A stretch of DNA of 64,000 bases from Flectonema sp. DT1601 (taxonomy: Eukaryota): positions 62,001 to 126,000 of the forward strand of contig OZ025796.1 in the NCBI GenBank assembly GCA_964019425.1, in the 5' to 3' direction. A model generated the notes under the pieces. It saw only the letters and a program-made list of their open reading frames with translations, made no database searches and was not told where the DNA came from. Positions 22,728-62,954 of this stretch are shown piece by piece (positions within the stretch are counted from its first letter, which is position 1; the number at the start of each line of letters is the position of its first letter). Both the position numbers and the translations under genes were made by a program.

Positions 22728-22767
22728 TTTATTTCAACTGTTGAAAAAGAGAAGTCATCCATTGTTT

Positions 22768-23103
22768 TAAACCCATACTCTCATCTACTAATTGGTAGAG
22801 TAAACCCATACTCTCATCTACTAATTGGTAGAGTAAACCCATACTCTCATCTACTAATTGGTAGAGTAAACCCATACTCTCATCTACTAATTGGTAGAGT
22901 AAACCCATACTCTCATCTACTAATTGGTAGAGTAAACCCATACTCTCATCTACTAATTGGTAGAGTAAACCCATACTCTCATCTACTAATTGGTAGAGTA
23001 AACCCATACTCTCATCTACTAATTGGTAGAGTAAACCCATACTCTCATCTACTAATTGGTAGAGTAAACCCATACTCTCATCTACTAATTGGTAGAGTAA
23101 ACC
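22768..23103. repeat. Perfect 33-bp minisatellite, 10 copies plus 6 nt
   Basis: TAAACCCATACTCTCATCTACTAATTGGTAGAG repeats at 22768, 22801 ... 23065 with no spacers. Confidence 0.97.
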
Positions 23104-23270
23104 TTGACCTGATGTGTGAATTATATTATGATAAAGTTTATAAAAAATAAAAATAAAAATTATAATTATATATGTGTTTTTGTTTCCATAAGGGAACATA
23201 AGTGCACCAGGGGTTTGAATGTTTGAATTTACAAAATACAAACATAGCGACCATTCAACAATCTGTTAAG

Positions 23271-31444: not shown

Positions 31445-34400
31445 TTAGTCATAGTCAGGCATTTCTTCATCGTGGTCAGCACCACCTTCTCCATCACCTG
31501 CATTAGCGCGTAGCTGTTTGTTTAATTGTTCGGCATGTTTTCTTTCTGTTTGCTCGGATGAGAGAGCTTTCTGAAGACGAGAACACTTGGCTTCCAATTC
31601 TTTGCTCGATTCACAAGTCTTTTTTAGTTCTGCCTGCAGTCTCGCAATCTCCTCTCTATCGTCTCTTTTTTGTTTTAACAGCTTTTCATCAATCGCCTGT
31701 AGACCTGCTTTCTCACTCTTTGTTCTTCTCAAAAGGCTTGAGTTCTGTCTTTCAATAGCGCCAATCTTCGCTGCTGTCGCACCTGCATCAGTAGCAGGCT
31801 GGTCATCACCGACTGAGAAGCTTCCACCATTGTGAGATACCATACTAGGAAGACCTGATGGGTTTCTACGGAGAGATGCTTTTCTTTGAAGAACTTTGAC
31901 CTGTTATGTTAAAAGTTTGATTAGCACACATTATGTTAATACATCCTTCCCCCCCCCTTAACTATATTATAAAGAATAACATACATCTCCACTCAAATCC
32001 TTCGAAGGCTGTCTAAGACCTAGTCCTGATGCAAGTCTTGGTAATCCCTGATTTTAAAGTATTTTTTTTATTTTTAAAAAGTGAATGTTACCTGAAAAAT
32101 GTTATTAACAACATACAGGTGTTGATATCGATGTTTGTCTCGGTAAGTCACCTCCTTCTTCCTTATCGAATAAGATAGTTGAGGTGGCGCGTTCTAGTTC
32201 ATCCTGTGGTGGTGGTTGTTGTTTGTTGTTATTAAAGTCTTTAAAACAGAAATAAATTCCATACAGTGCTGGTATCGATTTCTACAGAGATTTCGAAGAT
32301 CTTCGACACCTTCAGCAGGCATTGCTCCACCTGCTCCCTAACGTGAACGCGAGTGCTGTCAATTGCAACGATTCTCATACCACGTTCAAGTTTACTTCGA
32401 CTGACAGGACCTTCATTGATTGTTGTAATTACTAAGTCATCATCATACATAAATCCAAGTTCATCATGAGCTTCATCTTCATTAACAACAATCACATAAG
32501 GGAGTTCTGTTAGCATTCCTTCATCTTCATGCCAACTGTTTTGAGTCATACTTTCTCTCAACTTTCTTATTTTTCTCTTTATAAATCTAATAAAGTGAAC
32601 AACATGTTCACAAAGAATTCCCTCAAATAATTCATAAAGACTGTCATCCATTAACGCTACAGCGATATTTTCCATAAGAGGTTGCTTTGGATCCTCTAGA
32701 CTGTCGAGGTATACGCAAGTAGTGTCATCAACAGCAGCGAGTAACTCGAGCATGTTTGATATACTTTCAGCATCATAGAGTCTGATGAGGTATCGCTCTT
32801 CAACTGCCGCAAGAACAGGTTCAGGTATCTTCTCAAGGAATGCGAATCCAATGTGTGATGTCAACCAATCACCACGTTCCATCTTTTCAAGAAAGATTGC
32901 AATAACTTCTCTCACTTGAGACACTGAAACACGTGGAAGTGCTTGTGAAGTCAGAGGCATAGTTGTCTTCTGTACCCATCTCTTCTTTAAAGCCGCAAAC
33001 AGACTTCCCTTCGGATCTGTATCATGAGCTTTAAACGTCGCAACCAACCCGAGCATTTGTTGAGTGATGTTATCTTCTGTAAATCCTTTTGAAGCTTCTC
33101 TCAAAGCAGAGTCTTGGGCGGGTGTTAATTTCACGCAATGACGGTCTGGCTGTACGGTCAGCTGTTTTTTATTTTTTAGTAAATAATCAAAAGAATCCAG
33201 TTCTTAAATCTCACAGTGGGTACTGATATAAAGACTGGCACCCTCCGAATTATCTAAATTCATAAATAACATACCAAGTCCATCGCCGATTGCTCAACTT
33301 CAGTAGAGACAACGGGTTCTTCAGGATCACGGAATCGGAATGGCTGTATTGTTGTTTTTGTTGTTGTTAGTTTTTCATATAAATAATAGAACAGTTGCAA
33401 AGTTTACTATCCTTGAGGTAGTGTTTTAGTGAACCGCTATCAAGAAAACAAAATAACAAAACACACCGCAAGGTAAGGCATTTCAATCTTAGGAAGGATC
33501 AAACCAGAAGCGAAGCTCAATTCCTTTTCGATGCCGTTCCAGTCGACTTTAAATGAACGCGTCTCAGTGTCGTACTTCGCATGACTCCTGCACACTTCTC
33601 CAAGAGCAGAGTGTCCGAGTTCCTGCAACAGCAGGTCCGGGCGACTCGGTGAGAACGACGACAGGTCAACGTCCTCAATCTGAATCTTCGTGTGCTTCGC
33701 AACAATCGCTTGACACTTGTTGTACTTGTCAGTCAGTGAAGTCAGAGCAGCCTTAATCATATTCTTGTGTTGAGGATAAGGAGAGTCCGTGAACGTCAAC
33801 CAGAAGTCCAGTGTTCCCGGCAATCCCGGAATGTTCCCTCCTCTTCGGATGTCATCGATGATCACATTAATTCCTCCCTGTTGACATTCGAAATCAATCG
33901 GACCCACGTTCGTCATGAACTTGTTCCAGTTTTCTTGAATCCTCTTCAGCTCATCCACAGCTATCAAATACTGCGACTCGTGAGTGTGCTCTTCGAACAG
34001 TTCTAACACCGACCTGAATGGAGTCATCAGTTCATCTTCACCATCCGTGTACTTTAGAAGTAATCTGTTACTCAACATTCTCTGAACTCTGTTTGAGAAA
34101 CTGTACAGATCTGTAAGCAGAGGTGCCAACAACGCCAACTTCACATTCTCGTGGAGCGCCATCGTCAACAGCTCAGGTGTCTCTTCTGCACTCAAACGCT
34201 CAATAGCAGTGCGAATAGAACCCTCTCTCGGTAAGTTAACAAAACGTTGGTATCTCCAATTCGTTAATACTCTGAGTGCGTGACAAGCGTCTTGTTGTGG
34301 TTTTGTGAGTAGCTTTCTGTCTGTTGTTGTGTACCTCTTCCACAGAGATTCGACTTCTCTCTCTGCTTCCATCGCTTCAGCTCTCGATTTGAAAGATTCA

Positions 34401-37400
34401 TTCTTTACAAGTCTATCACTAATCATTAGCTTTTCGACGAAGAACGAAAAGATTTTCTGCGTCTCATCAACTGACAACCCAGTGAAGACTCCCATGTGAA
34501 GATGGTAGGCAATACTTCTTTCAGTCATTTGATGAACAAGATGACGGTAATCACTAATTCCTTGTTGATATCCATGAATTCGTTCTCTGATAGTCGGAGA
34601 GAACATCCACTCCCACAGAGTTTTGAAGCTTTCCGGCCAGAGAGTCAACTGAATAGCGAGGGCACCGAATTCGACAGCCCACAACAAGTAACAAGCACCA
34701 GTACTCAGCACCTCCTGTCCTCTGGAATACGAAGCGATCGCTCCGCTTTCATCTAATTGGGTGACGCAATCAAACTTGTAGCAACCTCCGTGTGTGACAT
34801 CTCCACCAGTCTTATCTCCAGGTATGAAACGATGCTTCTGAGCATCCACATCGAAGAACATTGAGCCCATGAATGACTTCGGGTAGGCGCAAGCAACACA
34901 TAGTGATGTTATTATCATTTCAGTCCAGTCGTTTTCAAATCCTCTCATTAGCGAAGACGTCAAGTCGACTTCTCCATTTGAGTAATCCTTACACTTCTTA
35001 TTATCAAATGCCATACCAAGTACACGTAACAATTTGTTGTCTAAGTGGAGAGCACTTTTCAGGGAAGCATTTTCAAGGAATTTATCAGCCATTGGATGGA
35101 CTGCAACTTCACCAAAGAAACACTTAAAGGAGACGTAAAAGAGTAGTAGTCTGGCCTTTTGAACTCCGTGTATTGGGACCCAGTCAACAATCATTTTCAC
35201 AACCTTGTTGACCTGTTCCAAACTAGTGCTCTGCATGTCACCTGAGAGCATCATCTCTCTTTGAAGTTGCAAGAATGGAGTGTGAAGAGGATCTTCAATA
35301 TCTACAACAAACGGAAGGTCACCAGCTTTTGCCTTCAGAGGTTCTGAGTTCTGACACTTGTGACGCATCGCTTCTCCGCAGATTGTTGGCATTGCACCGA
35401 CTCTGCCGGAATCCGAATCCACAACCTGGTCCTGCATATACAACAGCATCGACTTGGTACCCATTCCTCTCAGTGATCCAATTCCTGATTCTAATGTGTT
35501 CATGAAAGTGAGTAAAGAGTTTTCTATTTCTAAATCTGGAGGATTATCGATTAACTTCGAATCCTCAGACGACAAACGAGCAGGGCACTTGTAACCAGCT
35601 GGCTCAAAGATACGCTTCGCTAACTTTGAAATCTTTTCAACTGCTTCCTTGTTTTCCATGAATGATGGAGCCCAGTCTCTCTTGTCTTGTTGTTCAGATG
35701 GTCTCATGAATACGACAGCTAACGAAACAATAAAAGCAGCTTCCTTAGCCTTCATCATAACCGAAAGAATGGACTTTCCTTCAATCGAAGCTCTAGCGGA
35801 AGCAGTAAGCAACTCCTCATAGCTCTCGCATTTCCTCAAGCAGGCGTCGACTAACACGTGCTCAGCATCCATTCCGAGGTCGTTATCATAACAAACATCA
35901 TAGACAGCGAGATACAATTTAGAATTCATCGACTTCTCCGCGTTTTTCCCGTTGGGATTGTAACTCTCGCACTTCGATCCCATCTTCTTCCCGGTCTCCC
36001 CCTCAGCCGCACTCTGAATCCACTTTTGCATCACTCCGTTCTTTGCCAACTCCACTGGAGCTGGAATACTGGATCCACGCGTCTCATTCAGCTGTCGGAT
36101 GATCCGAGCAGCCATCGAACGAGTTACGTTGCTGCTGCCCTTCGCAACCACGAGACCGATGACGAACTGAGGAACCTTCGAATCCGATGTGAAATCTCTG
36201 GAAAGCGATGCCAACTGCAGTGCGACTCTGCATGTCGAAGAGGGGTGCTCCTTGAGAAGGCTCTCAATGATCTTCAGATCAACAGGAACTGTTCCCTCAC
36301 TTGCAGTATTGCAACTCGACTTGATAAAACTCTGAAACAGATCAATCGACTTCTTGTTCAGTTTATCGATTCCACTGATCACCGCTCCGATGATCGACAA
36401 GCAAGGCGCATGTTTGCTCTGTACAATCCATTCACTAGTCACTCGATGAAGCATCGATGAGCAAGCAGTCTTGAACTCTCCCAAACGGTTCTCAGCCATT
36501 TCAGGGAACGCTTCCAGCAGTAGCTGAGGACCCAATTCGTGGGCAACCCAAGCAGCGTTGTGACCACTTTCCTGACTGATGATAGATGGAGGCTTCCTCT
36601 TATCAAGTGCGCCCATAGCCGCCAGTGGCACCATCGCCATGATGTAGTCATCCACAGCAGCCGACGCAACAGAACACAGAGCACGAATACTCCAAACAGT
36701 TTCCTCTTTACCAGGAAAGTATAGTTGATGAAGTCCTCTAACTAATTCAAATACCCAGTTCAGAACATTCTCAACGATTACAATATTGCTGTAACGAACT
36801 CTGCACCTAATGTGATCTCTTAGGAATGATAATACAAGTGAATGATCAGAATGTACAGCACCAACAAGTTCTCTAACCATTTCATCATCATGTTTCAATT
36901 CAAGATCTGCTGCAGTCTGCACAACATCTACAGCATTGCTTGCCACTGGAAGGGTCTCAATGATAGATGATGATCCAGGAAGAGATGGCATGGAAACACC
37001 GACGTAAATCGTATCCAAAGTGCTGACCTTCTTCCTTCTCAGTATGTCGAAAGTCGTTGCCCGTGACGCTACCTCAAGGGCCTTCGCTACAATCGTGTCA
37101 CTCTTCGCCAACTCCTTCTCCTTCCCTTTTTGCGATGCAAGACAGAGCAACGCAGAAGCATTCCGGTCATCCAACAAGAACCTCAGCGCAAATGTCAACA
37201 GCGCGCGAGGCGCCTTGTTTTCTTCGTCGATCAACCGTTGCGCCAAACTCAGCGACTGCCCGTCCTGTGCAGCAACTTCCTTCGCCATCTCAACGAGTTC
37301 CAACTCCGTCGGCTGACGGGCTCTGTAGAAGTTCACCACCACCTTCTTCACCTTCGGGCACACCTTGAACAGCTTCTTTGCAATAGCAACCTGCTCGTCG

Positions 37401-40400
37401 AACGGCCGCTTCAGGTCGTACAACGCAGAAGCTGGATCCTCCTCCGGAACAGGCACCCACTTGGTCGCAGCCTCGCTCTGCGCCTGCATCAACGTGTTCA
37501 TCGCACGGTCCAGCAATACCTCCAGATCCCTCCATTCTGGAATTGGTCTTGGAGCCCTCTTCCCGACGATCATCGGGTCAACGTACTGCTGCAGGTCGAG
37601 CTTCACGTGCTCCGCCGCAGCATCCAGATACACCTGATCCCATCCCGATCCGAACAGTGGAGTGCAGTTACTCGCCTCCGTCAGGTTCGAGTTCTGGAAC
37701 GACTGGATGATCACAACTGCTTTGTCTGTCACCATGTCCTTCTCCTTCTCCCGCACATCGGGACGCGAGCTCAGCAAGTACCGCACCTCACGGCACTCAG
37801 GCTTTCCGAGAGAGTCCGGGCTCATGATTAGCACAAAAACGTACTGCTCCGGATCCGTCGTGAAACGGTACAGCTCCTCCTTCAAGTCCTCCTGTCCGCG
37901 TTCAGATTCCAGCAGCCCGTCCAGAGAAAGGTGCGTCAGGTGCTCGATCGGCTCCAACAGTGACGGGAAGTCTGCGTTCGACGGTGAGAACACCACCGAC
38001 CGAAGCCAGTCCGCATCATCCCCAACTCCGCCCGTGGCTGACGGTGCCACCTTGTCTCGCAGATCCCGCAGGTACCCCGTCAGATCCCAAGGTGCCAAGT
38101 CTCGGAAGTACGCACGCAGGTACGCCGGTGCATCGCTCTTCAGCACTCTCTGAGCCAGAAGCATCCCCTCCGGTTTCAGAACCTGCAACATTCGGCAAGA
38201 GCTCGCCTTCCACCTCGCGTCGTCTGCGTTGCTCCCAGCCAAGAACCCGTCCAATGCATCGTCGTTTCGGATACGCAAGTTCACCGGCAGGTCCATCAGA
38301 GTTCCCTGTTGAACCCCTTCCAGTATCACAGAGTCGAACGTATCCACATCCGAGTCTCCGAACAGGCAACGATTCCGTACCGACAGCGTAGTCTGGAACT
38401 TCGCTAACTTCTGCCTCACTTCCATCGCCGCCTCTCTCTCCTCGGGTTTCAGCTTCGCCAACGCGAACTCCAGAATGTCTTGCACCGTAATCGGGAACTT
38501 CTCCAGACGGTTCAGGAACGGAGAAGGCAGCACGTTCCCCATTCCCGTCAGCTCCCTCTTCGTCACGTGCACGATACACTGGAAATCTCGGTGCACTCGC
38601 TTGTACTCCAGAGCCGCCCCCACAGCCACCGCCACGAAGTGCAGCGTCTCGTTCGCCCCGCTGCTCGCTACCACATAGTTCTGGTTGAACACGTCGAACA
38701 GGCACGCGTCGATGTCTCTCGTGTTGGTCAGCCACACCGTCCGTCCGGCCTCCATCGCCGCCACGATCTGCGACACCACCGTCACAGGCATCAGCTCGTC
38801 CCCGTATGAAAGTGAACTCAACGACAAAACACTCAGGTTGTTGAACTGCTCCACTCCCGTCTGCCGCAGCAGCTGAAGCATCGAACCGTCCTCCGTCGTG
38901 TCCACCAGCAGCTTGAACCGCACCCACATGTCGTTCAGGTTCTTCCCCGAAGCCTTCTCCGTCGCACGGTTGTTGTCCTTCAGCGAGTCGATCACCACGT
39001 CCAGCTTCCGACGCAGCATCGGCTTCAGCTCATCAACCGAGTACGCCCCGTCCACCTCCCCGAGCGCCTCTCCGAACCTCCGCAGCGCCGCGTCGAAGTA
39101 TTCCGAAGGTCCGTTGAAGTTCCGCTCCAACGCCCGCAGCACCAGCTCCGGCGACACCGTGATCAGCCCTTCCCCCGAGTTGTTTCGACGGATGTATCGC
39201 ATCATGTGGAACAAGTCTCGCAACCCAAACCACCAACGGAACTTCAAGCTCGGGTCGAACCCGACCAGCGTCTCCTCCTCGTCTTCCTTCGGAGGAGGGA
39301 CCAATCGGTGGAACGCATCGCAGCAAGCCGGGATGATCCGCTTCGACACTTCGCACAGTCCCCGCACCCCGTGCTTGCTCAAGATCCCCGCACACATGTT
39401 CGTCAGTTCCTCCGGACGCGGCTTCGCCATGAACACCGTCACGCATCGGTTCCCGATTGCCGTGTCCAGCGACGTGTTCGTCATCAACACCGAAGCCAAG
39501 TTCGCCCCTTCCAGGTAGTAGTGCAGCACCTTCAGCGCCCACTTCCGCTCCACCGTCGCCCCCTTCACCAAACCAGCCTCGTCCACGAACAGCAGCGTTC
39601 GCTTGTTCAGTGTTCCAGAGCTGTCGTTCTCCAATTGCTTCTGGTACGCTTCCTCGCACTTCTTCTTGATCTCGTCCGCGCTGCTCTGCGCGGATCCCTG
39701 GTAACGGCAGATGTCCGAAATGTGACAGAAGTCTTTCCAGAACAGTCCGCATCCCTGCATGTTGTCTCGGATGATGTTGTTCGAAAGCGTCTTCGAAGTC
39801 CCCGGAGCTCCCTGCAAGATCACCGCCAACCGCAGCTCGAAGCAAACCATCTGCACGAACAGGTTCTCCATCAGCCCCTGGTGAGCGTACACCGCATCCG
39901 GAAGCTTCAAGTGGTCGCTGTGGCAGTGGTACGTCACCGCCCGTTGCACCACCGTGTCGAACGCCACTCCCTGCGGGAACGCACGCACTTGCTTCTCCTC
40001 GTCCTCCCCCGCAAGCTGCGACAGCCGCTCCGTCAGCGCCTTCGACAGAGACGCCCGCTGCTCAGGAGGGAACCGGAAGTAGTACGAACACGCCATGGCC
40101 ACCGTCATCGCTGACAGCGTCCGGTCCCAAACATCAGCAGCCTGCTTCCCGTTGAACGAAATGTAGTCCACCCCCTGCTTGTAGAAGAAGTCGAACAGCT
40201 TCATCGTTCGGTGAATGTCTCGCTGCGAAACCGTCGATCTCTTGTGAGCAACTGCCCGTTGCGCGAACTTGTGCGTGTGCAGCAGCAGGTCCGACAGCGC
40301 CCGCAGCTGCGACTGACGGATCGATGCCGCGAACAGGTTTCGGTTGCTTCCCATCAGCCGCATGATGAACATCTCCCGCTGGTTCGCCGCCAGCTGCTTC

Positions 40401-43400
40401 CACGGAACAATGTGCTCCTTCAGCGCTGGCTGCATCGGAGTCACGTCGAACCCGAGCTTCTCCCCGGACTCCTTCGTCTGCTTCTTCGTCTCCTCCTCCG
40501 GGTACTCCTCCACATCCAGTCCCTCCAGCGACGCGTCCTTCGTCGTCGGGTTCACCGCTCCCAAGAACGACACGTTCGGTGGCAGGATTCCGTTCGTCTC
40601 CGGGTGACTCAACTCCCACTTATCCCAATACCGATCCACCACAATTCTCTTAATCAATCCCAACATGTTCGTAGCATTCATCTCATCGATCATTATCATG
40701 AAGTTGATCGTCGGACACTTCAAAGCCTTCTCCAGCATCGGAGACATTTGATCGAACAACATTTCCACCGTCATGTCGTATCTCATCAGGATGATCAGTG
40801 AACTCTTCGACCGCTTCAGAGTCAGAGTTCTCCTCAGCAGGTCTGCGAGAGCCTCACCGGAATTCTCACCTCCATCTGAAAGGTCACGGAGGAGACTAGG
40901 TGGCGGGTCGAGGATCGGAGAAAGTCGAATTTGGTTTCTCAGCTCTGCGCGAACTGCTCGGCACAGGGCGGGACCGTTTGCCTTCGCCGCAATGAAAGCT
41001 TCCTTAGCCCACCTTATGGAACCGTCAAGGGAATGCTTTTTCGTAAGAATACTTTGCATTTGGCCATAACTAGCACCTGCAAAGCTCTTCATCTGAGATG
41101 AACTCAATACGCTTCCCATGGTGTCACGAATTTGTCCAACAAGAAATCCTCCACTTACGATGGCTAGTGACCTTACAATCTCATCGAGGGAAGCAAAAAT
41201 CTTTTCTGCTGCCTCCTTGTCTTTTCCCTCTTCTCTTTCAACTCCGTCTTTCATGATAGCAATGGCATCTCTGAATGCTTGTTTTCTAGGGTTGTCAACA
41301 ACATCAGCAATGTTCGGATTAGATATTCTGTCAGCAATAAGAGGTCCTAAAACATCGTTAACACATTTTCTCAGGTAGTCTAAGGCGTCGTAGTCACCCT
41401 TGTCAGCTAACAGTCTCATACATTGAACTGGAGGATGCTTAGCCTCTTCCATAGTCGCTTCAAGCATGATTCCCATCTTTCCAATCTTAACATCAGCATC
41501 ACCATCAGGGAATAGTTTCTTTATGCCGGGATCAGTTCTGATGAATTTATTGAAGACCGCAATTAAATCATTGTGACCTTCTCTTTTAAATGCTGCTGAT
41601 GCATTTGGAGGAAGCTGCAACAACTCAGAAAGCATAGCAACAGCGTAACTCTTTCCTGTTCCTGATGGCCCTTGAAGAATTGGTGGATCCTGAATTCTAA
41701 GATGGCAATACATTTGAACTAACTTCTGTAAGAAGTCAGGGATGAGGACGTAGTTCTTTCCTCGAAGAGCGGTGAGGGCAGTTTTCTTTTCGATGCAAAC
41801 TTCATCAGCCAAACTATCAATTAATGAATAAAGAGGTGCACGAGAACGTTCAAGACGTTGTTTCTCAGCCATCTCACGAAGTCTCTCTTTTTGCTTAACA
41901 GTGTCCGTCTTGTCAGCTTTCATAGATATCATAAAGTCAATACGTTCTTCAGACTCATCGATCATTGCTTTTTTAAGTTTTTGAATAGCAGTCACTGGCT
42001 CTCCTTCAAAACGTTGATTAAGCTGATCAATTGAAAATTCCATTCGTTGTTTGATGGTACCAGTCATTACAACAATATGAACATTATCCTTACTATCAGG
42101 GTTAATCATCGTATGCATTTCATGCATAAATGTTCTTACGACTAGAGCTTGTTTCTTTGTTCTTCTCAGAGAGGCTGGGTCTCTCTGTTTGTGAGTATAC
42201 ATCTTATATTGGTACACAAGATGCTTTAATGATCTGACTAACATTCTGTGAGTTATCTTTTCTAACTCTAATTCTAAGTCAAGCTTTTGGATTTCAGGAA
42301 GAGAATCGACTTCAACAGTGTCATGTCCAAGACACATTAGTTTAAGTGATGTGACATCATGTTTACTATCACTTGGTATGTCTTGTAAGTTATCTTTAAT
42401 CCACTCAACTGCTTCTTGAGCACCAGGTACAGCATTTATATCGAAGTTCTCGAGAGCTCCAGCAGTAGCTAAACCAGAACACGCCAACAGAGTGATATCA
42501 GTCATCCCATTTGACCGTTTCCATGGACCATTCACATCCTTTTCTCTTCCGAGAGATTCCTTCGCGTCAGGAGGATGTTGGAACTCGACAACCAAATGCC
42601 AAGTCTTCTTCGGAATCGAAACGGCCAGACCGCTGTTCGATTCGATCCGACCAAAGAAGATCAGAGAATCCAAAACCTGATTGACGATCTGAGGGTCACT
42701 GTCTTGTCCGACGTGAATCACTAGCAGTCCGTGTCGTTCCCTCATCGGTCCCATCAGCCGAGTGCAGATCTCATCCAGCGAGTTCTTCGTCGAATCCAAA
42801 TCCAAGCGAGTCGGTAACACGCTTCCGAACTCTCCAGACTTGATCTTCTTGTCTATCGAATAAGACTTTCCAGTTCCACATCTCTGAAGGTAGTAAGTGA
42901 TCGACTTGAAGTTGTTCAGCTCACAGCATCTACCCATCGCCCACTTCTTCCACTTCACGTCACACGACAAGTTGTCCACGTACTCCACAGTCTCGTCACT
43001 CCCATCACCGCCCGTCACCACAGCGATCAGTTCTTTGTGCTCGTGTTTCCCTTCTGTCGCGAGCCGCACCTCATTCTGTTGGTCCGGTGACAACAAGTTC
43101 AGGTTCATCACAACGAGTCTTCCCTTTTTCGTCTGCTTGTACAGCTGCAGGAACGCCCTCACGTTCTCCGCTGGTGTCTGCGCAGTGCAGTCCAACACGT
43201 GGTAAGGACGCACGTCTCCCTCATGCAGCGCTATCGCAAACAACTTCCTGTCTGACACAGCTAATCTACTGGTGTCTACGATAGCTCCCTCAACAGTACG
43301 AGTCTGCAGTTGTCCGTAACGGGCCGCCGCCGGGTCGTAGTTGCATGAAATTCGAGGGTCCTTCGCGTTCTTGTTCTTCTTCCTCAGAATTTGCAACAGT

Positions 43401-46400
43401 TTTCCGATTCTGTCCAACGTGCTCAGGGCTCCTTCCGCAATCACCGCCTTCGCTACAGCCGTCGACTCCCAATCTGTGAACAGTTCTAGTCCGTTCGTTG
43501 AACCCTCGGCTGCCTCCCTCAGTGCGATACGGAGCTCAGCCGCTCGGCAGACTGCTCCAGTCGATTTCTCGATTGTGTGCCAGACAGCGAGTTCGTCATC
43601 GGTCAGTTTATCGGTTGCAACCTTCGAAACCAAATCATTCTTTATGTTTACTATTGCCTGGAGCTGGACAACAGACTTTAGTTTACGAACAGCTAATTCA
43701 GGAAGATCAATACTCATAGCGTTATCCCAACCGGTACCAAATTCATGGCGGTTCCAATACAGACCTGAAGCATCTTGTTTTAACTCTTCAAGTGATGAGC
43801 AGGCCAATACATTAACTCTCGCTCCTTCACGCCAACTCTTACCATCTCCCCAAGTCCACTTCGTACAGTAGTGTGGGAATGGTTGATCCATTGAAGACAT
43901 GTACAGCCCTTCGGTATTCTTTCCATTTTTAAAGGAAACCACCCATCTCTGCACATTCGAATCTCTGCTGAGGCGAAGTTCATCATTTTCATAAATGACG
44001 AATCCCTTCTTGTCAGTCTGCTTCTGAAGTGTCAGAATACCACCAGGACGAGACTTTGATACGACTCTGATACAATAAGGCTTCTCTTGGAATCCATCAA
44101 CAACAGTCCATCTCAGAGGTTCTGATCCAATCCTCGCTGTTCCCTTGCACGGGTTCGACCAAGCAACAGGTCTTTCTGCAGCATCAGTGACGCACCAACG
44201 ACCGTCCCAATAAGTCATTCTGTATTTTCCATCTTTTCTGTTGTAGGTAGGAATCCATCTTCTGTAGAGACCATCACAGACGCCATCACTACCCTTACCT
44301 GAAGTAGTTGGAGTGGTTCCCTTAACTACAACTGATGCGCTTTGTACATCCGAAATTGACTGAGGTCCAGCAGAGCTGACGAAAGTACACTTCACATCCT
44401 TTCCGTTGATTACAACATAGGGAACAAGAGGACCATCAGCTCTCGGGAAATCCTTAGTAGTAACGGAGTTAAACATACGCTCTCCGTCACAGAGACAACC
44501 GATTGTGCCCTCTCCCAAGTCAACAGTGAAGGTAAATGTGAACTCTTGAGAGTTTTGGTTTGTTGTAGTTCCCATGTTACTTGAGTTCTTAAGAATGAAA
44601 ACACTTCCATTCTGCTTCAGTCGCATACCAAACATTGAAGTTTCTGGGTCTGTTGCCTTATCAAGTGAAACACCTGGAGCAGCAACACCAATACTCAGAA
44701 ATTCATTAAGAGAACGACCCTTTGCGTGGATGGAGAATGTATGAGGACCTGGTCCTACCATTACTCTGTTTCCTAATGCTACCGTTGGTGATTCAGTCTC
44801 TGATGTCACAGTTGGTCCATCGATCTTCAATCCCTTTCCGATTTGTACCGAATTCCAACCCAATACCTCATCGACTGGCTCACCAGGACTGATGACCGCT
44901 TTAGCAGTCTTATTGACTAGGTAAACACAAGGCCTTAAGCTTCCCTTGACTTCGGTAAACCGAGCAAGGTTTCTCCTACCGTTTAACTTGAAGTCGATTG
45001 TCTTCGCTTTCTGATCATAAATAACGGTGATGATATCACCACTTCGGAATGCTCTGGCGTTGTCAACATCGAGTCCATTGTGTCTGAGAGTACCATTTCT
45101 CATATACCAATAGGCACTCTCTTTGTTGGGAGACTCGTCTACCGGCTTTCCAAGATCAAGGTCCTTCGTACAGAGACCTATTCTTGAAGCAAAGACGTCA
45201 CCTGTGATCTTTATTCTCCAAACCTTGGCAGGTGCCGGGGAGATAGCAATGGCAGGTGCTGTGCCACGTACTTTGACAATTTCTCTTCCGTTAGCAGAGA
45301 TATCGGCTGATTTTGAACACACCAACCAAATATAAGCAGGAATTACTGTGGCTGTAAAGTTTGGTTTTGATTTCGTTGCTTCAGAACGGAACTCTTTTGC
45401 GAGATCAGAAATCTTTTTAGTTCTTTTGTTATTAACTGCAACGATACGCATGCCTGCTTCGAATCCAACGGATTCCCACAGTGAGAATTCCGGGCAGTCA
45501 GTTATGTAAAGTGTGCTCGCCATCTCCTTCAGTCCGAGGGATTTCAATGAACTTCCGCACTGAACGTGAATGTTGTGTTCCGCACCTCTGCAATCATCAG
45601 ACCACTTCTCAACAATCGTGAATGCATCGTCAGCCTGTACTTTTGCGTTCAAACAAGGCTGTTCGTTTAAGAATCCGTGACTGTCACTTTCCCTCCAGTC
45701 ACCCATCTGCCATGGCTGAAGGTAAGATTCATTATCAGACATCGATACTAATAATCTCCTCGCGTTCATTACAGGTTTATCATACACAACCCATCCACCA
45801 GCAACAGGAGAGAGTACTAATCCGTCTTCACGTTTGTACATCCAGAGACCCTTTTCAAACTCTCCATCACAGACACCAAGTCCTTCAAATAGTAAAGGTT
45901 CGTTGTCTTCAGGGAGCTTTCCCACCACCGATACTCCCCTCTTAGAATGCAGTGGTGTTGTTTTAACTCTGATAGAGACATCCTCAATTGATCCTCCCTC
46001 TTGAACGGCACTTGTTTTCTCAACGCGTTGAATCATTTTCATCTTTCCCTTTCTCCAGTTTTGTAAACGACTCACGTCTTGTACGAAGTTGCTTAACGCA
46101 GCAGTACTTCTCATTAACTCAGCAGTTCTCACAAGCTCAGCAGGAGTGACACAGATAATCTCCGGGTACTTCTGACACATTTTCACAAACAGGGAAGTCG
46201 TGCTCTCGGAGTCCTTCGCCCACTGGCCCTCCAATGACTGCAGCATCTGAGTCAGACGAGCAGCGTCATCATGTCTGAAAGTGATTCTCCTCGATCTGAA
46301 CTCAATGTGACCCTCACTGAAGAGGGCACACGCCGTGTTGAAAGCCCTCATCACCTCACGTGCTTGGTTAGCGAACACTTCCAATGAACTGTGCTCATTA

Positions 46401-49400
46401 CGCTGCAACGTCGCTCTGTAGACAAGATCACTGTACTCAGCCATGTTTCGCAACTTACCGTCGTGAGCATCGAATTCGAGAGCAGGTTGCCCAGTTGTTG
46501 GGAGGTTGATGATAATCAAAGCAGCACTTCTATCAATGTAGTCATCCTCATCAACTTGAATACCTTCCGGGATTCCCTGAAGTCCTGATGCGTAGTGACA
46601 GACGATTATCATTCTGTCTGTAGTTCCTGACTGTTCTTTAATCATCTTCACTAGTTTCTCAATCTCATCAACAGCAGTCATCTTCTCAAGCTTCTTTTGA
46701 ATGTTTCGCACGTCTTGCAGGGTGTCATCTCCAAATGAGTTGTTCATCAGCGACCAGAACCCATCGCCAGTGATATCAGACCCAGCCACGAACCCACTGT
46801 TCGAAATAGGAATTCTCATCTCAACACCACTGTAGGGGATGTCACCTTGCTCACCAGCGTCTCTCTTGTCTTGAATTAATTGTGATCTCCTCTCATTGAA
46901 TTGCTCTACGTATGCTGAAGACGCCCACACGAATGGATTCACAAAGTTTGTCAAGTTGAAGAAAGTCTGGAAAGAAGCGTGTTGCAAATCTCTAGAGTTC
47001 GAAAGAACTGATGCAAGACCTTCATCCTGTGCTTCAGGGTTCTCACGAGTGAATTCAACCAACTCCGTACAGTTGTACACCGTCCTCATGATTTCCAGAA
47101 CACGGTGCTCACAACCACAACTCACTCGCTTGATTTCAGTCGAACGTATCTTCGCATCTTTCAACGTCACCTTCGACAAGTCATCGTCGAGAAGGATACG
47201 TTTTTCAGTTTCGTTGAAGAACTGCGAGTGGAATCTCAAATCCTTTTGAGGAGAGTTCACCATTTTTCTCAGAATTTCCAAGTCGTGTACGACAAAACGA
47301 AGAGGAAGACCTCCGTCAAGGAGAGCATCGATGGCTTCTGGGTCTGTGCCGATCCGCTCCATCAGAGCCTTCTCTTGTCTTTTTCTACCCTGCTCGTAGT
47401 TTCCATCAGGCGGGTGAAGCCCAGCAACAGCCTGTTCGATGGTGCTATCCAATTTGATACTTGACAGAGACTTGCAAGCATCTCTGAAAGAATTTTGGAA
47501 TTCAGCCAGTGAGACTCCCTTGTTGTCACACAGAATGAGAAAGTGTGCTCGCAGTAACGGACTCGATGTAGCATGCGGTAGAGTAAGAGCTTCTCCGAGT
47601 GTCACACCAGCCTTCTTCACCAGCTTCTCGAGATCATCCAAGTTCACGAGTTCCTTGCGTACAATGGATTCCGTAAATTCATTCAAAAGTTCTCCCGCTC
47701 CTTTAACTTCCCATTGCTCTACGAGTTCCCTCAGTACATTACCGCTGTGCTCAAGGTTCTTAATAGGGGCGTTGAAGTCAAGTTCTGGAAATGTGATTCC
47801 ATTACGTTCATGAATTCCACTGTGCTGTTTAGATAAAGAGTACACATGTCGACTGATGCGGTGACTATTCAATCGATTTTGGAATTCTTTAGTAGCTGTT
47901 TCGATTCTCTTAGTGAACGCACCTACCGGAGTGTACTTACTCTTCAACAGCTGAACGAGATTTACGTCAATTGGAATGGAGTCCCACTTAACAGAACGTG
48001 AGTCAAAGTAAACAGACAGCAGGGCATCTGCAGCATCAGCACGAATACCCTTGAATCTTGCCATCTCTTGAACATCACCTTTTATTCTATCAGAAGAAAA
48101 GATCCAGTTGTCGAGTTCGTGAACCTTTTGAGTGATTACGATTCTCTCACAGCACAGTCTCCAGAGATTCAAAATGAAGTCACCGTAATCCTTTGAGTGA
48201 TCTTTTCTATCACGATCAGCAAATACTCTTTTAATTAAACCAACTGACGGAACACCTGAATGAGTCTCTAGCCATCTAGCATCCCATTGAGAGATGTTAT
48301 CTCTTAGCATTGGGAAACAGGCAGCAATGGCTTGCTTACCCCAGACACAAGAAGCGGTCACTACTGAAGATCTTTCATACTTACACAAGTGTTGATCCAT
48401 ACCGGAACTCCAGTAACCAGTTACTGTATCAGGGCTTCGTACAGCTCCTTGAACCATTGAAAGAACTACAGCGAATGTTTTGTCTCTAGGTTCGTGCATA
48501 TCGATGTCAGCCATTGAGAACCTCTCTGACCTTTTCTCTTTCTTCACCGTAATTCTAAATCTCAGTTCGAGATCACTGTACTTCACATCAGATACGATTC
48601 CAGATGAAAGAGCTGGATGGTTCAAAGCAATATGATGACCAGTTATTTTAAAGGCTTCAGGATAGTTTCGATTATTAAATCCATTCAACCAAGTCCATCC
48701 TCCATCAAAATCATGACGAGACACGAGAGAGAGTGCATTGACAACAGCAAGTGGGTCACCACTCTGACGAACTTCTGTCTGTGTGATGAGCTTCAGGGAA
48801 GCCATCACACCAGTTGGTGTTGGCTGCAGATCTTTCTCTTCGAATGCCAACCCGTATATGGATATTAAATTGACGCAAGGATGTCTCATCGCTTGACTGT
48901 GCAGCCATCCCTTCGGACCAGAAATCGTTCCCTTCAACTTCGTATCGGAATCCTCAATCGCACGAAGTACTACGATCAGAGTCTCCGGATAGCAGTGGCG
49001 GACATTAAACTTGTCTCCCCTGTCTCCAAGAAACTGTAACAGTGACGATGCGAATCCAGGTAACTCGCTGAACGCCTTCTTACACTTATCGTACAGGTCA
49101 GGGGCAGGAGGTGCCTTCAAAGAGGTTTGAAGAATTCTCGAAGCGAATGCGACGACAGTTTCTCCACCAATTTCATCCTTTTGGAAAATAAATTTCCAAA
49201 CCTTGTCCGTGTTCCTCTCTTGAAGGATAACTGAAAGCTTTGTGTGCTCGCTGTACGAATGATGGTCCATTGAAGGAAGGGGTAACCAGAGTAGGAAGTC
49301 CTCGAGCCCGATACCAAAGTGAGGAATTATTTTACTCACAGGACACTGAGGAAATTGCTCACTTTCCAGCTTAAAGCACTTCGTCAGCTGGGGTTCGCTG

Positions 49401-50641
49401 CCCGAACAGATGAACTCGACTACTATGTTGTCGTGGCTCTTCTGGTTGAACCGAAGTTCAATTCCGTGGTCGCAAACCCATCTTCCGATAATAGCGCGCT
49501 CTCCTCCTCCTCTGCGTCCTCTTCCCACACCAACGCCGTCCTCACCAAGATCAGTATTTCCGCCGCCACGACCTGCTTCCTGTTTAGCCTGTTCGATACG
49601 AGAATCGTCACCTAACAGATTCCAAACCTCCTCAGGAGGAACTCCGTCTGCAGCGTGATGCAAAATGTTATCGGCCTCATTATTATCGAGCAACACTGGT
49701 CCAAAATCATCCGATCTTGGAGCCGTAGACTTTGGGTTTGCCTGCCACAATAGCAACTCCGCAGCACGTCTGCTGTCGACAGGAGCTTCGAGAAGCTCAG
49801 AAATAATCTTTATCCATTTTTGTTGAGTCAGACGCATAGAAGCAATGTACTCCATCAGGTAAGCGAAGGCTGCAGCAGCGTGCTTACCGTATGGAAGTCT
49901 GCGAGCCCATTCCTTTATTTTTTTGACACAACTTTCGGATAGCCTGCTCTCTCTAATAAGTCCCAAGTCCTGTAGACCTCTCTCACGGTGAGTACTGGCT
50001 TCAGCCATTCTGATACAGGCCGAGGTAATCATTTCATAAATAGCAAGTCTGTCTCTTGAGATAGCATCCACTAAGTGTTGCTCATCTTCTGTGCATCGCT
50101 CATTGGCTACAATACCCTTCAGGACTTCATGTACGCAGATCATTATCGTAAGTACCACTGAGCTTGTTGTTTTTTTGTACTCTTCACATAATTTTCGTGT
50201 TTCAAAAGTAACTTGTTGGACAGTCTTGTAGAATTTTCCCACAATCGGTACTCTGATTGCTGTTTTCCCGTGATCTGAGTACTCCTTTCCGTTCCTAGAG
50301 AGGGAAACAGCGAATCCATTGAAGATGAAAGAAGCGCATTCCTCGTGCCACTTTCCTTTCATGATTTCCGTAAGGAAACGAGTCCAGTTCACAGCAGCTT
50401 CTGTAAGAAGGTGGGGCTCTGCAGGAGGCTCTCTCATGACGACAATATCGTCGAGACCCATTCCTCCTAACCCCATCATCCCACCTATCCCACCCCCCAA
50501 ACCCATCATTCCTCCCATTCCTCCCATGCCCATCCCTCCCATTCCCATCCCTCCCATGCCCATCATTCGGCCTCCGGGATACCCACCACCCGCCCGCCGT
50601 CGATCCCTCATCATCCGTTCCCTTTCAATGTCTCTCCTCAT
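31445..50641 (-). CDS. Giant RNF213/mysterin-like multi-AAA+ ATPase, paralog B (~6,250 aa). Predicted exons 50641-33467, 33343-33275, 33161-32265, 32203-32117, 32047-31985, 31900-31445
   Basis: 5744-aa ORF with the same AAA motif series as paralog A; first ATG at 50641. Five phase-0 GT..CAG introns link it in frame to the ORFs at 32241-33134 and 31445-31843. The first two intron positions are identical to paralog A and the third is at an equivalent position. Confidence 0.88.
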
Positions 50642-57987: not shown

Positions 57988-58598
57988 GTTGAACGTAATT
58001 CTGGAATTGAAATAATGATAATTTAAATAAAAACGAGTCTGATCATTTTGTTTTAAACTTAACGAATCCAACAACAATCATGTACATAGATTTTTTTTTT
58101 TTTTTTTTTTTCCCCATCCAAAATTTAGTTCGAACGATAATACAGTGTTGTAGCAAATATGCTTTTCCCTTCTTTTTTTTTTTTTTTTTTTTTCTTAAAA
58201 ACAGTGAGTTGCAGGGCGTTAGTGGGATAAGTGCCAGCAGCTCATAAAAAAGTCGGGGCTTTTAGAAAAAAAAAAATATATAAAATAATAACAATAATAA
58301 AAAGGAGAATTCTCCGTTGCCTACATAAAAAAAAGTTTTTTCTCCGTTGCCTGCACCCAAAAAGTTTTTTCGCTGTTGTGAACAACTCTTTTTTTTTTTT
58401 CTCTAAAGAAAAAAATTTTTTTCTGGAAAAAAAAAAAAAAAAAAAAAAGAAAAAAGAATTGAGAAAAAAAAATCAGAGGTAGAATCTTCACATCTTCTCA
58501 CATTCTTGACAGTGTTTCCTTGTTAGACGAAAAGTTTTATAAAGCAAGAATAGAAAACACTATAAATGAATCAGATGATGAACTTGCATCGAAAAATA

Positions 58599-60643
58599 TT
58601 AAAGCTCATCAGATGATGAACTTGAATCACACTTCTTTCTCTTTCCGGATATCCGGTTTCTCCTAGTCGATGTATCGACAGTCTTCTTGGGGGCCGACTT
58701 CTTGGGGGCCGACTTCTTGGGGGCCGACTTCTTGGGGGCCGACTTCTTGGGGGCCGACTTCTTCGCTGATTTCTTCGGGGCCGATTTCTTAGGGGCTGAC
58801 TTCTTCGGGGCCGACTTCTCGTTTAGGGGGTTTTTACACGTCTTATTGTGGCCCACCTTACCACAACGACTACACAAGTTCTTTCCCTCCCCTTTGGAAG
58901 GAATCCTCTTCGTGGGGGCACCCTTTAGTTTCTTCGTTGTTGACGGTAACAGTTCAGTCTTCGCCGACTGAAACTGATACAGCCCAACTGGCCGTACTGG
59001 GTCGTCATACGCCTTTCGAAAGGCTTCCAAACGAAAGCAGGTTGGAACGTACTGCATCTTGTTGAAACCAAGAAACCTGTTTATTTAGTCCAATTAATTC
59101 GCCACAAGTAGCGTTGACCACGACAACAAAAAGACAAAAAGAAGAAGTACCTGATAGCCGCGCAGGTATGAACGCATGGCAAGGCAGTCTGCTCTGGGAG
59201 CAAACAGGTGCAAGCCATTTCTTTACCCACCAGCTTGACCAACTCCTGCCTCTGTCCATGTACAACGTTCGCTGTTTGTTGTTATTATCCCTGCAGATGA
59301 TTCTACAAGCCCCGAGAAAGATACCATACCTTCGAACACTTCGCCTTCGTGCATCACTGGTTCAACAGTGAACACTGCTGCTTCAACGGCAGCCGTCTCC
59401 ACGATCTCTCTAACCCACCCCAAAACCATCTCGTCATCACCCTCTGCATCGTGCGCACTACGCCGTCGCTCGTAGTGCCACTTCTCCACAATGCTGACAA
59501 TGCTGTTAAGCATCCCCAACACATTCTTGTCCCTGGCTGAAGAGATAACATTGTTAAACCCTTCAGCCAGGTTATTCGTACTTTGATTGTACGTCTTGGA
59601 GCGGATTGCACCGCGAGCCCAAGTCTCAGGCTCCTTTTCATCCAGGTATTCATGGAGCATTTCAAGCTCGTTCTCCTCCGCAGACTCACCAAGAGCATCA
59701 AACATCGGTAGAAACCTGTACGAAGGTGCCGTACACAGATGTTTGAACCTACCAAACATCTCCTTGCCGAACTTGGCCTTGATGTTTCGACCCATGTGTG
59801 CATTTGAGGGCAATCACATCGTTGTAATCCCCACGAAGCACCGACAGTAGGCCCTTGTCCTGATCGGCCATAAGGCCAAACCCTTCGCCCAAAAACTCCG
59901 GAACCTTCACCGCCGACTCCAGCTTCCCAAGGAAGTACTTCCACCCTTCGGCGTCTTCATTGCCTATCAAGGCGAAACCCACAGGGAATTGACTTCCCAG
60001 TGGGTCCATTGCAACAAATGTAAGCAATGTCCCCAAGTAATGTAAGAAGCACCCATCAACAACCCCAAATCCCCCCGGACATGCACCTACACCCTCCAGC
60101 GATGCCCCCAAAGCAAGGAAAAAGGACTTAAACCTTCCACCCTCTTCTTTTATGTCCCACTGGGTACCTGGGTTTTGTTCCGCCAGTGAGGTGAACCAGG
60201 CCTGTAACCGGGTCACCATTGATCTCTTTATCGGCCTCTCCGAGGACCCGGTATACAGTATCCTTCCCTACTGTTATACCGCAAGACTTTAAGTCTTGTA
60301 CAAGGTGGGACTTTTTATATTTTGTACCCAACTCCTTGTATTTTGCCAGGGAAAGGTAGGCTATTGTGGTCTTGAGCCCGTACACCCTCCCCTCCCCAGG
60401 GTTGCAAGCGTCCGTATGCCGCAGCTGTGACACCGTCACAGTTCTCTCTTCACAACTCCCTGTAGCGCACACCCTCCACTCACATGAGTCGGATGTGCAA
60501 TGGAACGATATCCGGTTCTCACGCTTTTGTCTGCTAAACCTCCTTCCAGTGGAGCAGCAGGCGAGGGTGACGCTTGCCAGGAGTGCACTCTCGCTAGGGA
60601 AGACACGTCCCAGGGTTGGTGTCGGAACATTGAACACCGGCAC
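58599..60643 (-). pseudogene. Frameshifted MULE transposase (MuDR N-terminus, DDE domain, SWIM finger, CCHC knuckle, KKSAP tail)
   Basis: Spread over several frames: FHC..CEWRVCA, VVDGCFL..FPVGFA..E..W..F, ADQDKG, TNNLAEGFN, CTCLLPEQTALPCVH, CSRCGKVGHNKTC. Probable intron at 59077-59150. Confidence 0.85.
58683..58819. repeat. 15-bp coding tandem repeat encoding (KKSAP)n
   Basis: CTTCTTGGGGGCCGA-like units, about 9 copies. Confidence 0.9.
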
Positions 60644-60809
60644 GTTTATGGTCGGGACAGGTGTAACAGTATCCTCAGATGAAAAATTCTTTTAGGTGGA
60701 CTACAACGGAGAAAAATAAAGTTTTGGGGTAGCAACGGAGAATTTTCCTAATAAAAAGGACAAAGCTCTAGTCTCCCAAAAGTGTCAATTGTACCCTCTG
60801 GCCTTTGAG

Positions 60810-60963: not shown

Positions 60964-61458
60964 TCATTCTTTCATTATTGGAGACTTGCCGATGAAAGCT
61001 GCTGCTCTGATATCTTTGTAGGTCAAGGAGCCTTTTGGTTTCACCATCTTCGCATCAACGAGAAGATCTGTAATAACTTTTTCAGTTATCCTCTGGATAT
61101 TATATAAAGAAGCCCGACTGAATCTCGTCACAGTAGTGAATTCCCTAACACCCCTCTTGAATGAGGTGTGAGGTAGACAAGGCTTTACATTAGCTTGTTC
61201 ACAAATCAAAGGACCAGTTGTTCCTTCTTCTCTTCTAATTACTTCAGCGATGTCACTTGCGCTAACGTTTGGTTTGTTGTTATTTTTTGCTTCCAATGCG
61301 ATTATTTTGATGTATTCTTCTAAACCAGCTGTTAATGCAATCGCTGAATTCGTTGACATATGAAGTTTTCCGGTTTCTTTCTTCATTCTTGTTTTAACCC
61401 TTCCGGATGGTATCGTTGTTGCCGGAGATTTTCGTTTTGGAGCTTTTGACTTCGCCAT
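60964..61458 (-). CDS. Double histone-fold protein (H2A-like fold fused to an H3-like fold)
   Basis: N-half IPSGRVKTRMKK..MSTNSAIALTAGLEEY..VSASDIAEVIRREE resembles H2A. C-half LPHTSFKRGVRE..RFSRASLYNIQRITEKVITDLLVDA..LTYKDIRAA resembles H3. ATG at 61458, single exon. Confidence 0.75.
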   Translation of the reverse strand: MAKSKAPKRKSPATTIPSGRVKTRMKKETGKLHMSTNSAIALTAGLEEYIKIIALEAKNNNKPNVSASDIAEVIRREEGTTGPLICEQANVKPCLPHTSFKRGVREFTTVTRFSRASLYNIQRITEKVITDLLVDAKMVKPKGSLTYKDIRAAAFIGKSPIMKE

Positions 61459-62954
61459 CTCTTGTGTCGGAGAGTACTTTAAAAAGAAATAAAATAAATA
61501 AAACCGATAACAAGTAGAGAACGGGAAACACTAAGAACGTTTTTTTTTTTTTTTTTTTTTGAAAATCCAAACACTTGCACATCAAAGTAAGCTAACGGGA
61601 TATCAGTCATTTGATACCACACAACCGTAAAGACTCCCTCAGGCGTGAAGGGACGTTGTGACCATCAGTATTCGTGTTAAGACACACTGCCAGTGTCAAC
61701 GACGTTAAGCCTAACTAACCCCTTTGGGTATTATATTATTAAATTCCTGTTTTTTTGAAGGGGGAAAAAAAAGATATAATTTGAAAAGAATTTCACTGCA
61801 GTAGCATTCACTGTAAGGGTCTGCGAAAAAACAAGCGCAACCTCAAAAAAAGAAATAAATAAAAAAATTGCATACACAAGTGATTGTTGTCAATTATCGA
61901 AATTACCCTCCGCTGTGATATAAATTTTGTTTCTCTTGAGAATCAGTCAAAAAAGCAAAAGCACAAACAGAAAAAATACTCACTTGTCTTTTCATTCGTT
62001 TTTCTTTTTTTTTTTCAATCAGTCGAACCCTCAATTTCCTCCCAGGATGGAAAACTGTGTTAACTTCTAAAACGATTTTTTCTCTGAATAGGATTTTTCT
62101 GGTCGGTACTTTTGCCTTTGACTGATAAACTCTTTTTCTTATTCTGTTAAGTTTTTTTTTTTTTTCCAGTTTTTTCTCACTTTCCTTCAACAATTTGAAA
62201 TACGACCAGGCAGCACCTTTAGCTAGAATTCCGTTTCAAAAAAACAAACAAAAATCATCAAAAAAAAAAAAAAAAAACTGGAAGGAAAGAACTAAAAAAA
62301 AGAAGGCATAGCTTGCTGACCCACTAACAAACGAAAAAAAAAAAAGAGAGAAATATCTATCGATATTTTGCATAAGGGAAAATCATCACAATAACATTTG
62401 ATCCTTCGAAGACCTCATCACAGCGGCCCAATCAAGTCTGCTCGAAACAACATTCTGTAAACCTGGGCCAACTATGAATAAAATTATTGCTGTCGACACT
62501 AAACAAAAACTATCTGATGATGGGTTCACGTAAACATATACTCAAGTCCTCACACGTTTTCTTTTTTTTTTTTTTTTTTTTATTCAGTCGCATTCCTTCT
62601 TTTGTGGGATGATACAACCTAATTTACTATTTTTTTTTTTTCCTCTTTTTTTTTTTTTTATTCTTTTTTCCCTTCCTCCCTCAAGCCAAACGAGCTAGCT
62701 ATAAAAAAAAAGAAGTTCATCAGATATCCACTTGTCAGTTTTTTCTTAAAACTAAAAATCACAATTGAATAAAGGTTTAAATGTTCTTTGTTAGTTTCAA
62801 AAAAACAATTCCGAACAGAACGGCGTTGAAGTTTACTTCAACCGTCAACCTTTTGACTCTCCCGCTGTGACTAGCCTCCAATGACAATACAACTAAATCT
62901 GGACCTGCCAACAACCATCAGGTTTGCAAGTTCAGAATTATAGTTTTTTGTGTA

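Follow-up and report, generated by a model that had tools for sequence, protein, structure and literature searches.

Fusion has been proposed as the route by which the partner specificity of histones first arose. The eukaryotic double histone folds listed in a 2026 review are those of the SOS, ABTB2, Spt3 and HSIH proteins (PMC13088155), and H3/H4 doublets as well as triplets with an unpaired H2A have also been catalogued (PMC13520046). As far as these two sources go, fused histones keep their cognate partners, except for the flanking folds in triplets, and the review has tandem histone folds always pairing within the chain in the cases found so far. The eukaryotic double folds that it lists join H2B/H2A, H3/H4 or, in Spt3, a TAF pair. 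As for the Nucleocytoviricota, their repeats include the H2B-H2A and H4-H3 doublets of the Marseilleviridae, H2B-H2A-H3 triplets and the H2A-H2B doublets of Klosneuvirus and Indivirus. In the available portions of four reports, H2A is shown beside H3 within triplets or quadruplets only (PMC9145170, PMC11222145, PMC13681535, PMC10919886), and no description of an H2A-H3 fusion, doublet or dimer was found in the literature searched, outside of which lay subscription journals and most supplements and FigShare tables. Accessory histone-fold dimers (Dpb3-Dpb4/CHRAC, NC2, NF-Y, CENP-T-W and CENP-S-X) consist of separate chains; in the grouping given by Tromer et al. (10.1101/514885), CENP-X and CENP-W stand with H2A/NC2/DPOE, and CENP-S and CENP-T with H2B/H3/H4. 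Archaeal doublets, of the Methanopyrus HMk or halobacterial HpyA type, are compact, with a short junction suited to self-pairing.

The gene presented here lies in a 64,000-nt window of Flectonema sp. DT1601 (the whole stretch of DNA analysed, on contig OZ025796.1) and codes for a basic protein, P0001 (pI 10.11; 31 K+R vs. 15 D+E), the features of which are given in Table 1. The minus strand translates without an internal stop, and the plus strand has no open frame over the same positions, stops closing it. An earlier, sequence-only reading had announced a 164-aa intronless ORF with a short basic tail; both are present, and the product is collinear end to end with that of a transcript of Flectonema neradi. 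The pyrimidine tract and AG preceding the start codon are also found upstream of three neighbouring genes and, from their sequence, are likely to be a trans-splice acceptor.

Table 1. Features of the doublet gene and of the adjacent transposon, by position in the window.
Feature	Position	Strand	Remarks
MULE, 2445 bp	58304..60748	minus	terminal inverted repeats and perfect 9-bp target duplication; separate element from the doublet gene
Double histone fold protein ORF (P0001)	60964..61458	minus	164 aa, intronless
C-fold, residues 94-158, H3-like	60985..61179	minus	loop 1 shorter than in H3 by 4 aa; 3-aa gap ending helix 2
Linker, 15 aa	61180..61224	minus	no room for H2A docking domain and H3 alpha-N
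N-fold, residues 14-78, H2A-class (H2A / Dpb3 / NC2-alpha / CENP-W type)	61225..61419	minus	helix 1: 13/18 identical to the relative
Basic N-terminal tail, 13 aa	61420..61458	minus	4/13 identical to the F. neradi relative
Pyrimidine tract and AG	61477..61528	minus	18 nt before the ATG; likely trans-splice acceptor

The neighbours, as identified with Pfam, code for a calpain, a glycerol-3-phosphate-dehydrogenase-like FAD oxidoreductase, TRM61/GCD14 and a class-V aminotransferase, the last of which we take to be NFS1-like; the housekeeping setting noticed earlier is therefore borne out. All the identified genes of the window are on the minus strand, a run consistent with the polycistronic transcription described in diplonemids (PMC8061765). 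Since the adjacent TRM61 is also intronless, the absence of an intron in the doublet gene is no viral sign. Its GC3 (0.33) and its codon score (0.106) both fall inside the range of five host genes (0.063-0.167 for the score); its codon use is host-like and unlike that of the MULE ORFs (-0.12 to -0.25). Its stop codon lies 215 bp outside the MULE, beyond the right repeat and the target duplication, in agreement with the distance of about 200 bp first estimated. The ORF thus falls outside the TIR-bounded element, and its interpretation as a Pack-MULE or transposon cargo, which the sequence-only reading had put forward for checking, was ruled out. The transposase of the MULE is itself split into three or more ORF pieces, and the final one carries a CCHC-like motif and SAPKK repeats.

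Concerning relatives, a search of 1,835,955,588 representatives at E 0.001 returned two proteins, i.e. the doublet itself and P0002, a 186-aa product of a Trinity transcript of F. neradi in EukProt, which is 45% identical to the doublet over residues 5-160 (E 1.9e-27). Homologue searches confirmed one candidate in 41, two in 2073 and, of the longer ones, none in 7991. None of the pattern matches in metagenomes (488), in contigs of prokaryotic genomes (68) or in viral contigs (22) was confirmed as a relative, and no relatives were found in phages. The TRM61 of the window clusters with two F. neradi proteins (88 and 87% identity) and, F. neradi being a diplonemid (PMC8061765), the 88% identity of this neighbour indicates that the host of the window, a marine protist, is one too. 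The doublet evolves much faster than TRM61 (45 vs. 88% identity to F. neradi), so that P0002 could be a paralogue. Judged by the two sequences, the gene is conserved, with transcript evidence that is the relative's, and the doublet is lineage-restricted, as it is found in two diplonemid sequences only. The objection foreseen at the outset, namely that the ORF might be neither conserved nor expressed, is answered by this transcribed, 45%-identical relative.

In Pfam, P0001 shows PF00808 at residues 15-58 (19.7 bits, cut-off 21.4) and PF00125 at residues 88-138 (14.3 bits, cut-off 26.4). Its relative has two PF00808 stretches, with PF00808 above the cut-off (33.2 bits, E 6.6e-08), together with PF00125 at residues 101-146 (21.4 bits, under the cut-off of 26.4) and CENP-T_C on the C-half (13.9 bits, E 0.06). 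Among the 1348 six-frame segments of the window, the doublet ORF ranks first on both the H2A profile (12.3 bits, next 3.7) and the H3 profile (6.8 bits, next 4.8), and does not reach the top four on those of H2B, H4 and NF-YB; none of 300 shuffles attains its H3 or H2A scores. Two consecutive histone folds in one chain, divergent as had been suggested, are supported by these sequence comparisons. PHROGs and NCBIfam searches gave sub-threshold rows only, and a Rfam scan of the window gave no match.

The C-fold was compared with profiles built from the fetched loci, including 23 eukaryote-like H3 (from viral contigs) and 74 NF-YB. On the H3 profile, on which H2B sequences score up to 12.9 bits, the C-half reaches 11.2 bits in P0002 and 7.2 bits in P0001 (0/300 shuffles each). 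On the NF-YB, H2B and H4 profiles, the last two made of 5 and 3 sequences, respectively, it remains at or below 0 bits (-1.2 on the 74-sequence NF-YB profile). With hhalign, the match to H3 is 61% (E 8e-5, 77 columns) vs. less than 1% each for NF-YB, H2B and H4. Every histone row of the C-half in the PDB search is an H3 (best 17.7 bits, E 0.021), in listings where thioesterases score in the same range as histones; searched alone, the C-half had no match in Pfam or PDB. In a tree of 51 rows and 74 columns (random draws of 10/23 H3, 5/74 NF-YB and 8/35 archaeal singlets), the C-folds belong to the H3 group (80/77), where they sit on a long branch among viral repeat H3s outside crown H3, the branching order within being unresolved. 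AU tests rejected no origin tested for either fold: grouping the C-fold with crown H3 costs 0.18 log units (p 0.50), and with NF-YB the constrained tree is 10.1 log units worse (p 0.22). The phylogeny that had been called for therefore brought the C-fold into the H3 group and left host and viral origins undistinguished. As a whole, the C-fold is likely of H3 type by sequence, H3 being the best class, at a weak absolute score, in a panel without NC2-beta, Dpb4, TAF9, TAF11/13 and CENP-S/T. A reading of the doublet as H4-H3 was rejected on the H4 profile (at most 0 bits).

Two features used for recognising cenH3/CENP-A are a loop-1 insertion and the absence of the conserved helix-1 Gln (PMC7052976). 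Loop 1 of the C-fold has no insertion, being shorter than that of H3 by 4 (P0001) and 2 (P0002) residues, and the helix-1 Gln is replaced by Lys in both sequences. The loop-1 arginine of H3 before 'F' is present in both. The end of helix 2 lacks three residues and has no His, while the Asp of helix 3 is kept in P0001 and is Ala in P0002; the altered positions are presumably the His113 region and Asp123 in H3 numbering. In H3, the His at the end of helix 2 and the Asp of helix 3 build the H3-H3 four-helix bundle. Such a bundle is unlikely here, given the loss or replacement of the His113 region and, in the relative, an Ala in place of Asp123.

As for the N-fold, it scores 12.7 bits on the H2A profile, built from 6 sequences of which 5 come from viral doublets, and 17% with hhalign (E 1.4e-3). 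In the PDB ranking of the N-half, three H2B-H2A chimeras, whose scores sum two stretches, are followed by 5y26_B (21.7 bits), which we take to be fission-yeast Dpb3, H2A.Z (17.2 bits), NC2-alpha (16.4 bits) and CENP-W (15.3 bits). The free tree joins the N-folds to NF-YB (84/78), a join flagged as long-branch, and grouping them with H2A gains 0.97 log units over that tree (AU p 0.55). Going by these scores, the N-fold is likely H2A-class, with Dpb3-, NC2-alpha- and CENP-W-type folds fitting about as well as H2A. The H2A-then-H3 order claimed from the sequence holds for the H3-like C-fold and, at the class level only, for 'H2A'; the safe reading, likely on these comparisons, is an H2A-class fold followed by an H3-like fold. 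The non-canonical pairing claimed with it agrees with the H2A-type and H3-type classes, which are not partners in nucleosomes, and depends on a true derivation of the C-fold from H3. The possibility that the halves would match TAF, NF-Y or CENP-type folds instead was realised in part for the N-half, on which Dpb3, NC2-alpha and CENP-W score like H2A, and was not for the C-half.

The junction between the two folds, measured from the last helix of the first to the Phe position of H3 helix 1, is 26 and 24 residues long in the doublet pair vs. 55, 79, 82 and 101 residues for the viral H2A-H3 junctions with the same anchors (4/4). Viral H4-H3 doublets have junctions of 64-68 residues in 3 of 5 cases (the other two did not map), and viral H2B-H2A doublets of 47-63 residues (7/7). 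A junction of 24-26 residues offers no space for the H2A docking domain and the H3 alpha-N, which are therefore absent. With a second anchor, the junction of the doublet pair (29-31 residues) exceeds that of 34/34 archaeal doublets (18-25 residues), so that self-pairing is feasible. A global hhalign also fits N-helix 3 and the residues that follow (67-78, window 61225-61260) to the H3 alpha-N, which makes the domain boundary uncertain: on this alignment, the protein could also be a truncated H2A-class fold followed by an H3 with its alpha-N.

The most conserved parts of the two doublet sequences are N-helix 1 and C-loop 2 (8/11), and the least conserved are N-loop 2 (0/8 identical, with a 3-aa indel) and C-loop 1 (3/6, with a 2-aa indel); 22 basic positions are common to both. 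In the geometry of the histone handshake, N-loop 2 meets C-loop 1. Since these two loops would touch, their shared divergence, with indels in each, is a hint of self-pairing drawn from two sequences only. AlphaFold gave a pLDDT of 42 for the single-sequence model and 49 for the two-sequence model, the latter with six predicted helices, short-long-short twice, without a handshake and at an rmsd of about 15 Å to single-chain H2A-H2B. With Foldseek, the model had no match at E 0.001 in PDB and BFVD, the top rows being fused histones. VIA-align listed no histone in 50 rows (best Z 7.0, unrelated helical proteins) and is uninformative for a model of such low confidence.

The reading that we favour, tentatively and as one nearly as apt to be right as wrong, is that the gene belongs to the diplonemid host and codes for a small basic protein with a double histone fold, in which the H2A-class and H3-like folds would pair with each other and, as a module of their own, bind DNA outside the nucleosome core. 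The novel host histone-fold protein suggested earlier is thereby upheld by its conservation, its transcribed relative, the order of its folds and its host setting. Host histone-fold paralogues would have been fused and would then have diverged rapidly. The two folds would form an intramolecular handshake, which the low-confidence models do not confirm, and DNA would be contacted through the conserved basic surface of helix 1 and the loops, with neither a canonical H3-H3 tetramer nor H2A docking. The protein may then play a role like that of NC2, Dpb3-Dpb4/CHRAC or CENP-T-W, in which it would bend DNA or mark it for a chromatin machine. By analogy, its working mode is likely similar to that of the accessory dimers: its N-fold scores as well with them as with H2A, and CENP-T-W and CENP-S-X likewise combine an H2A-class with an H3/H4-class fold. 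Those dimers differ in being made of separate chains, and the C-fold of the doublet is nearer to H3 than to NF-YB or CENP-T.

Compared with SOS (its H domain), ABTB2, Spt3 and HSIH-DHF, the doublet likewise carries two histone folds in one eukaryotic chain and, like Spt3 and Cca3S, it is single-domain with low identity to core histones, going by the entries in PMC13088155 and PMC13520046. Unlike the double folds listed there, it appears to join an H2A-class to an H3-like fold instead of a cognate pair, is only 164 aa long and basic, and occurs in two diplonemids only. As for the archaeal doublets, their compactness and short junction are shared; archaeal profiles nevertheless give at most 6.0 bits per domain on the doublet (hhalign below 5%), the halves of which belong to different eukaryotic classes.

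The most serious alternative, although we consider it unlikely, is that a cognate accessory pair was fused and then diverged (Dpb3-Dpb4/CHRAC, NC2-alpha-NC2-beta, CENP-W-CENP-T or X-S, or a Spt3-like TAF13-TAF11), the mismatch being an artefact of classification; the doublet would then function like the dimer in question. The best single PDB match of the N-fold is indeed 5y26_B, above H2A.Z, the free tree joins the N-fold to NF-YB despite the long-branch flag, and the AU test tolerates a C-fold with NF-YB. Besides, P0002 has its two PF00808 stretches and its CENP-T_C match, and the pairing of an H2A-class with an H3-class fold is normal for CENP-T-W and S-X in the grouping cited above (10.1101/514885). 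The C-fold, however, scores below zero on the NF-YB profile, with less than 1% in hhalign and a constrained tree worse by 10.1 log units, and PF00125 outscores CENP-T_C on P0002 (21.4 vs. 13.9 bits). Both CENP matches (CENP-W 15.3 bits, CENP-T_C 13.9 bits) are below other families and below the cut-off. Spt3, TFIID-18kDa and TAFII28 are absent among the Pfam and PDB matches listed, from which filters dropped weak ones. Essential subunits of replication or transcription would, moreover, be expected in more diplonemids than the two sequences found. A disguised Dpb3-Dpb4 or NC2 fusion, if that is what the doublet is, would be a modest curiosity.

A domesticated giant-virus histone repeat, e.g. 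an H2B-H2A-H3 triplet that lost its H2B and had its junction shortened long ago, seems distinctly improbable. For the viral comparison, 18 loci were fetched that carry doublets (H2B-H2A and H4-H3), three H2B-H2A-H3 triplets and one quadruplet; the arrangement ascribed to the Nucleocytoviricota in the sequence-only reading does exist among them. The doublet shares with these repeats its fused, tail-poor and divergent folds and, with the triplets, an H2A directly before an H3. The position of the C-fold among viral repeat H3s in the free tree, with its order unresolved, points the same way, as do the viral top rows of Foldseek, which are histone repeats (best Indivirus, E 0.12), and the first two rows of Atlas, which are Nucleocytoviricota clusters (0.84 and 0.83, at lead level only, all scores being below 0.9). 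In addition, other chromatin-linked proteins of diplonemids are reported to be of apparent giant-virus origin (PMC11633173).

On the other hand, the doublet differs from the viral repeats in lacking an H2B, a docking domain and an alpha-N, in its junction of 24-26 vs. 47-101 residues, less than half of the shortest viral H2A-H3 one, and in its host locus and host codon use. Its profile gives at most 6.3 bits on the viral triplets, less than 3 bits on the quadruplet and 14.6 bits on the best viral H4-H3 doublet, which is no better than eukaryote-like H3 singlets (up to 15.3 bits), and the grouping of the C-fold with crown H3 is nearly free of cost in the tree. No relative was confirmed in viral contigs or among the 1.84 billion representatives, an NF-YB pattern had no match in viral contigs, no H2B-like segment was found upstream (best 1.9 bits, over 2.5 kb of the window), and none of the 16 window proteins scanned belongs to a viral hallmark family. 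The H2A part of the reversed Indivirus/Klosneuvirus doublets is without the 'PxGRV' start of the doublet, in a by-eye comparison with one supplement passage (PMC9145170). A recent viral capture is unsupported by these comparisons, and the endogenised or domesticated viral histone initially suspected found no positive support; the tree, which cannot place the C-fold, is compatible with an ancient viral origin. Among the viral contigs themselves, one (L171:1156-3377) carries an H4 singlet adjoining two adjacent H2B-H2A-H3 triplets, and another (L178:2-1138) an H2B-H2A-H3-H4 quadruplet.

Still less probable is a bridging variant subunit, the N-fold of which would take a free H2B and the C-fold a free H4; the product would be half a nucleosome or a nucleosome of reduced stability. 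The core-histone classes to which the two halves come closest do have H2B and H4 as their partners, and the loop-1 arginine is retained in both sequences, but the docking domain and the alpha-N are absent, and the H3-H3 bundle is unlikely on the grounds given above. As a precedent, a viral triplet does form nucleosome-like particles with H4 (PMC13681535). Finally, a chance resemblance to histones or a decaying relic is scarcely credible: P0001 is indeed under both Pfam cut-offs and the structure searches are without a significant match, but P0002 exceeds the PF00808 cut-off (E 6.6e-08), none of the 300 shuffles attains the H3 scores, and, at 45% identity, neither ORF is interrupted, most of the conservation being in helix 1 and loop 2.

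As far as the two sequences can tell, the double histone fold, whose halves appear to be mismatched, is real and, in the literature searched, undescribed. If true, a compact, basic and transcribed doublet of H2A-class and H3-like folds would show in a living organism whether a new histone-fold pair can arise by tethering, and would lend itself easily to expression and structure determination; should non-cognate self-pairing be confirmed, fusion would be seen to rewire histone partner specificity in a living eukaryote. The doublet is also a putative component of the chromatin of diplonemids, a group in which the kinetochore is still largely to be identified (PMC11633173). The more specific proposal of an expressed single chain in which non-cognate H2A and H3 folds pair with each other and bind diplonemid chromatin, where it might serve the kinetochore as a DNA-binding part comparable to CENP-T-W, is improbable. 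The significance of the doublet is that of two sequences and a weak class assignment, the function being a deduction from them.

Apart from the doublet, the window holds two intronless ORFs in tandem, which code for 5654 and 5733 aa (positions 5763-22727 and 33440-50641), about 27.7 kb apart, with DNA identity in blocks (75 to 100%) and a GC3 of 0.51-0.52, differing from that of the housekeeping genes. SPRY, in the first ORF, is the only domain recognised by Pfam; Walker-A-like motifs can also be seen, and both ORFs are presumably RNF213-like. A 33-bp tandem repeat (22702-23163) lies immediately upstream of the first giant ORF, and directly downstream of each is one of two similar-looking, Pfam-negative ORFs of 307 and 271 aa (4661-5584 and 32241-33056, respectively). 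Lastly, positions 1114-3831 code for a protein with a vWA domain, the tail of which is very long and rich in glutamine.
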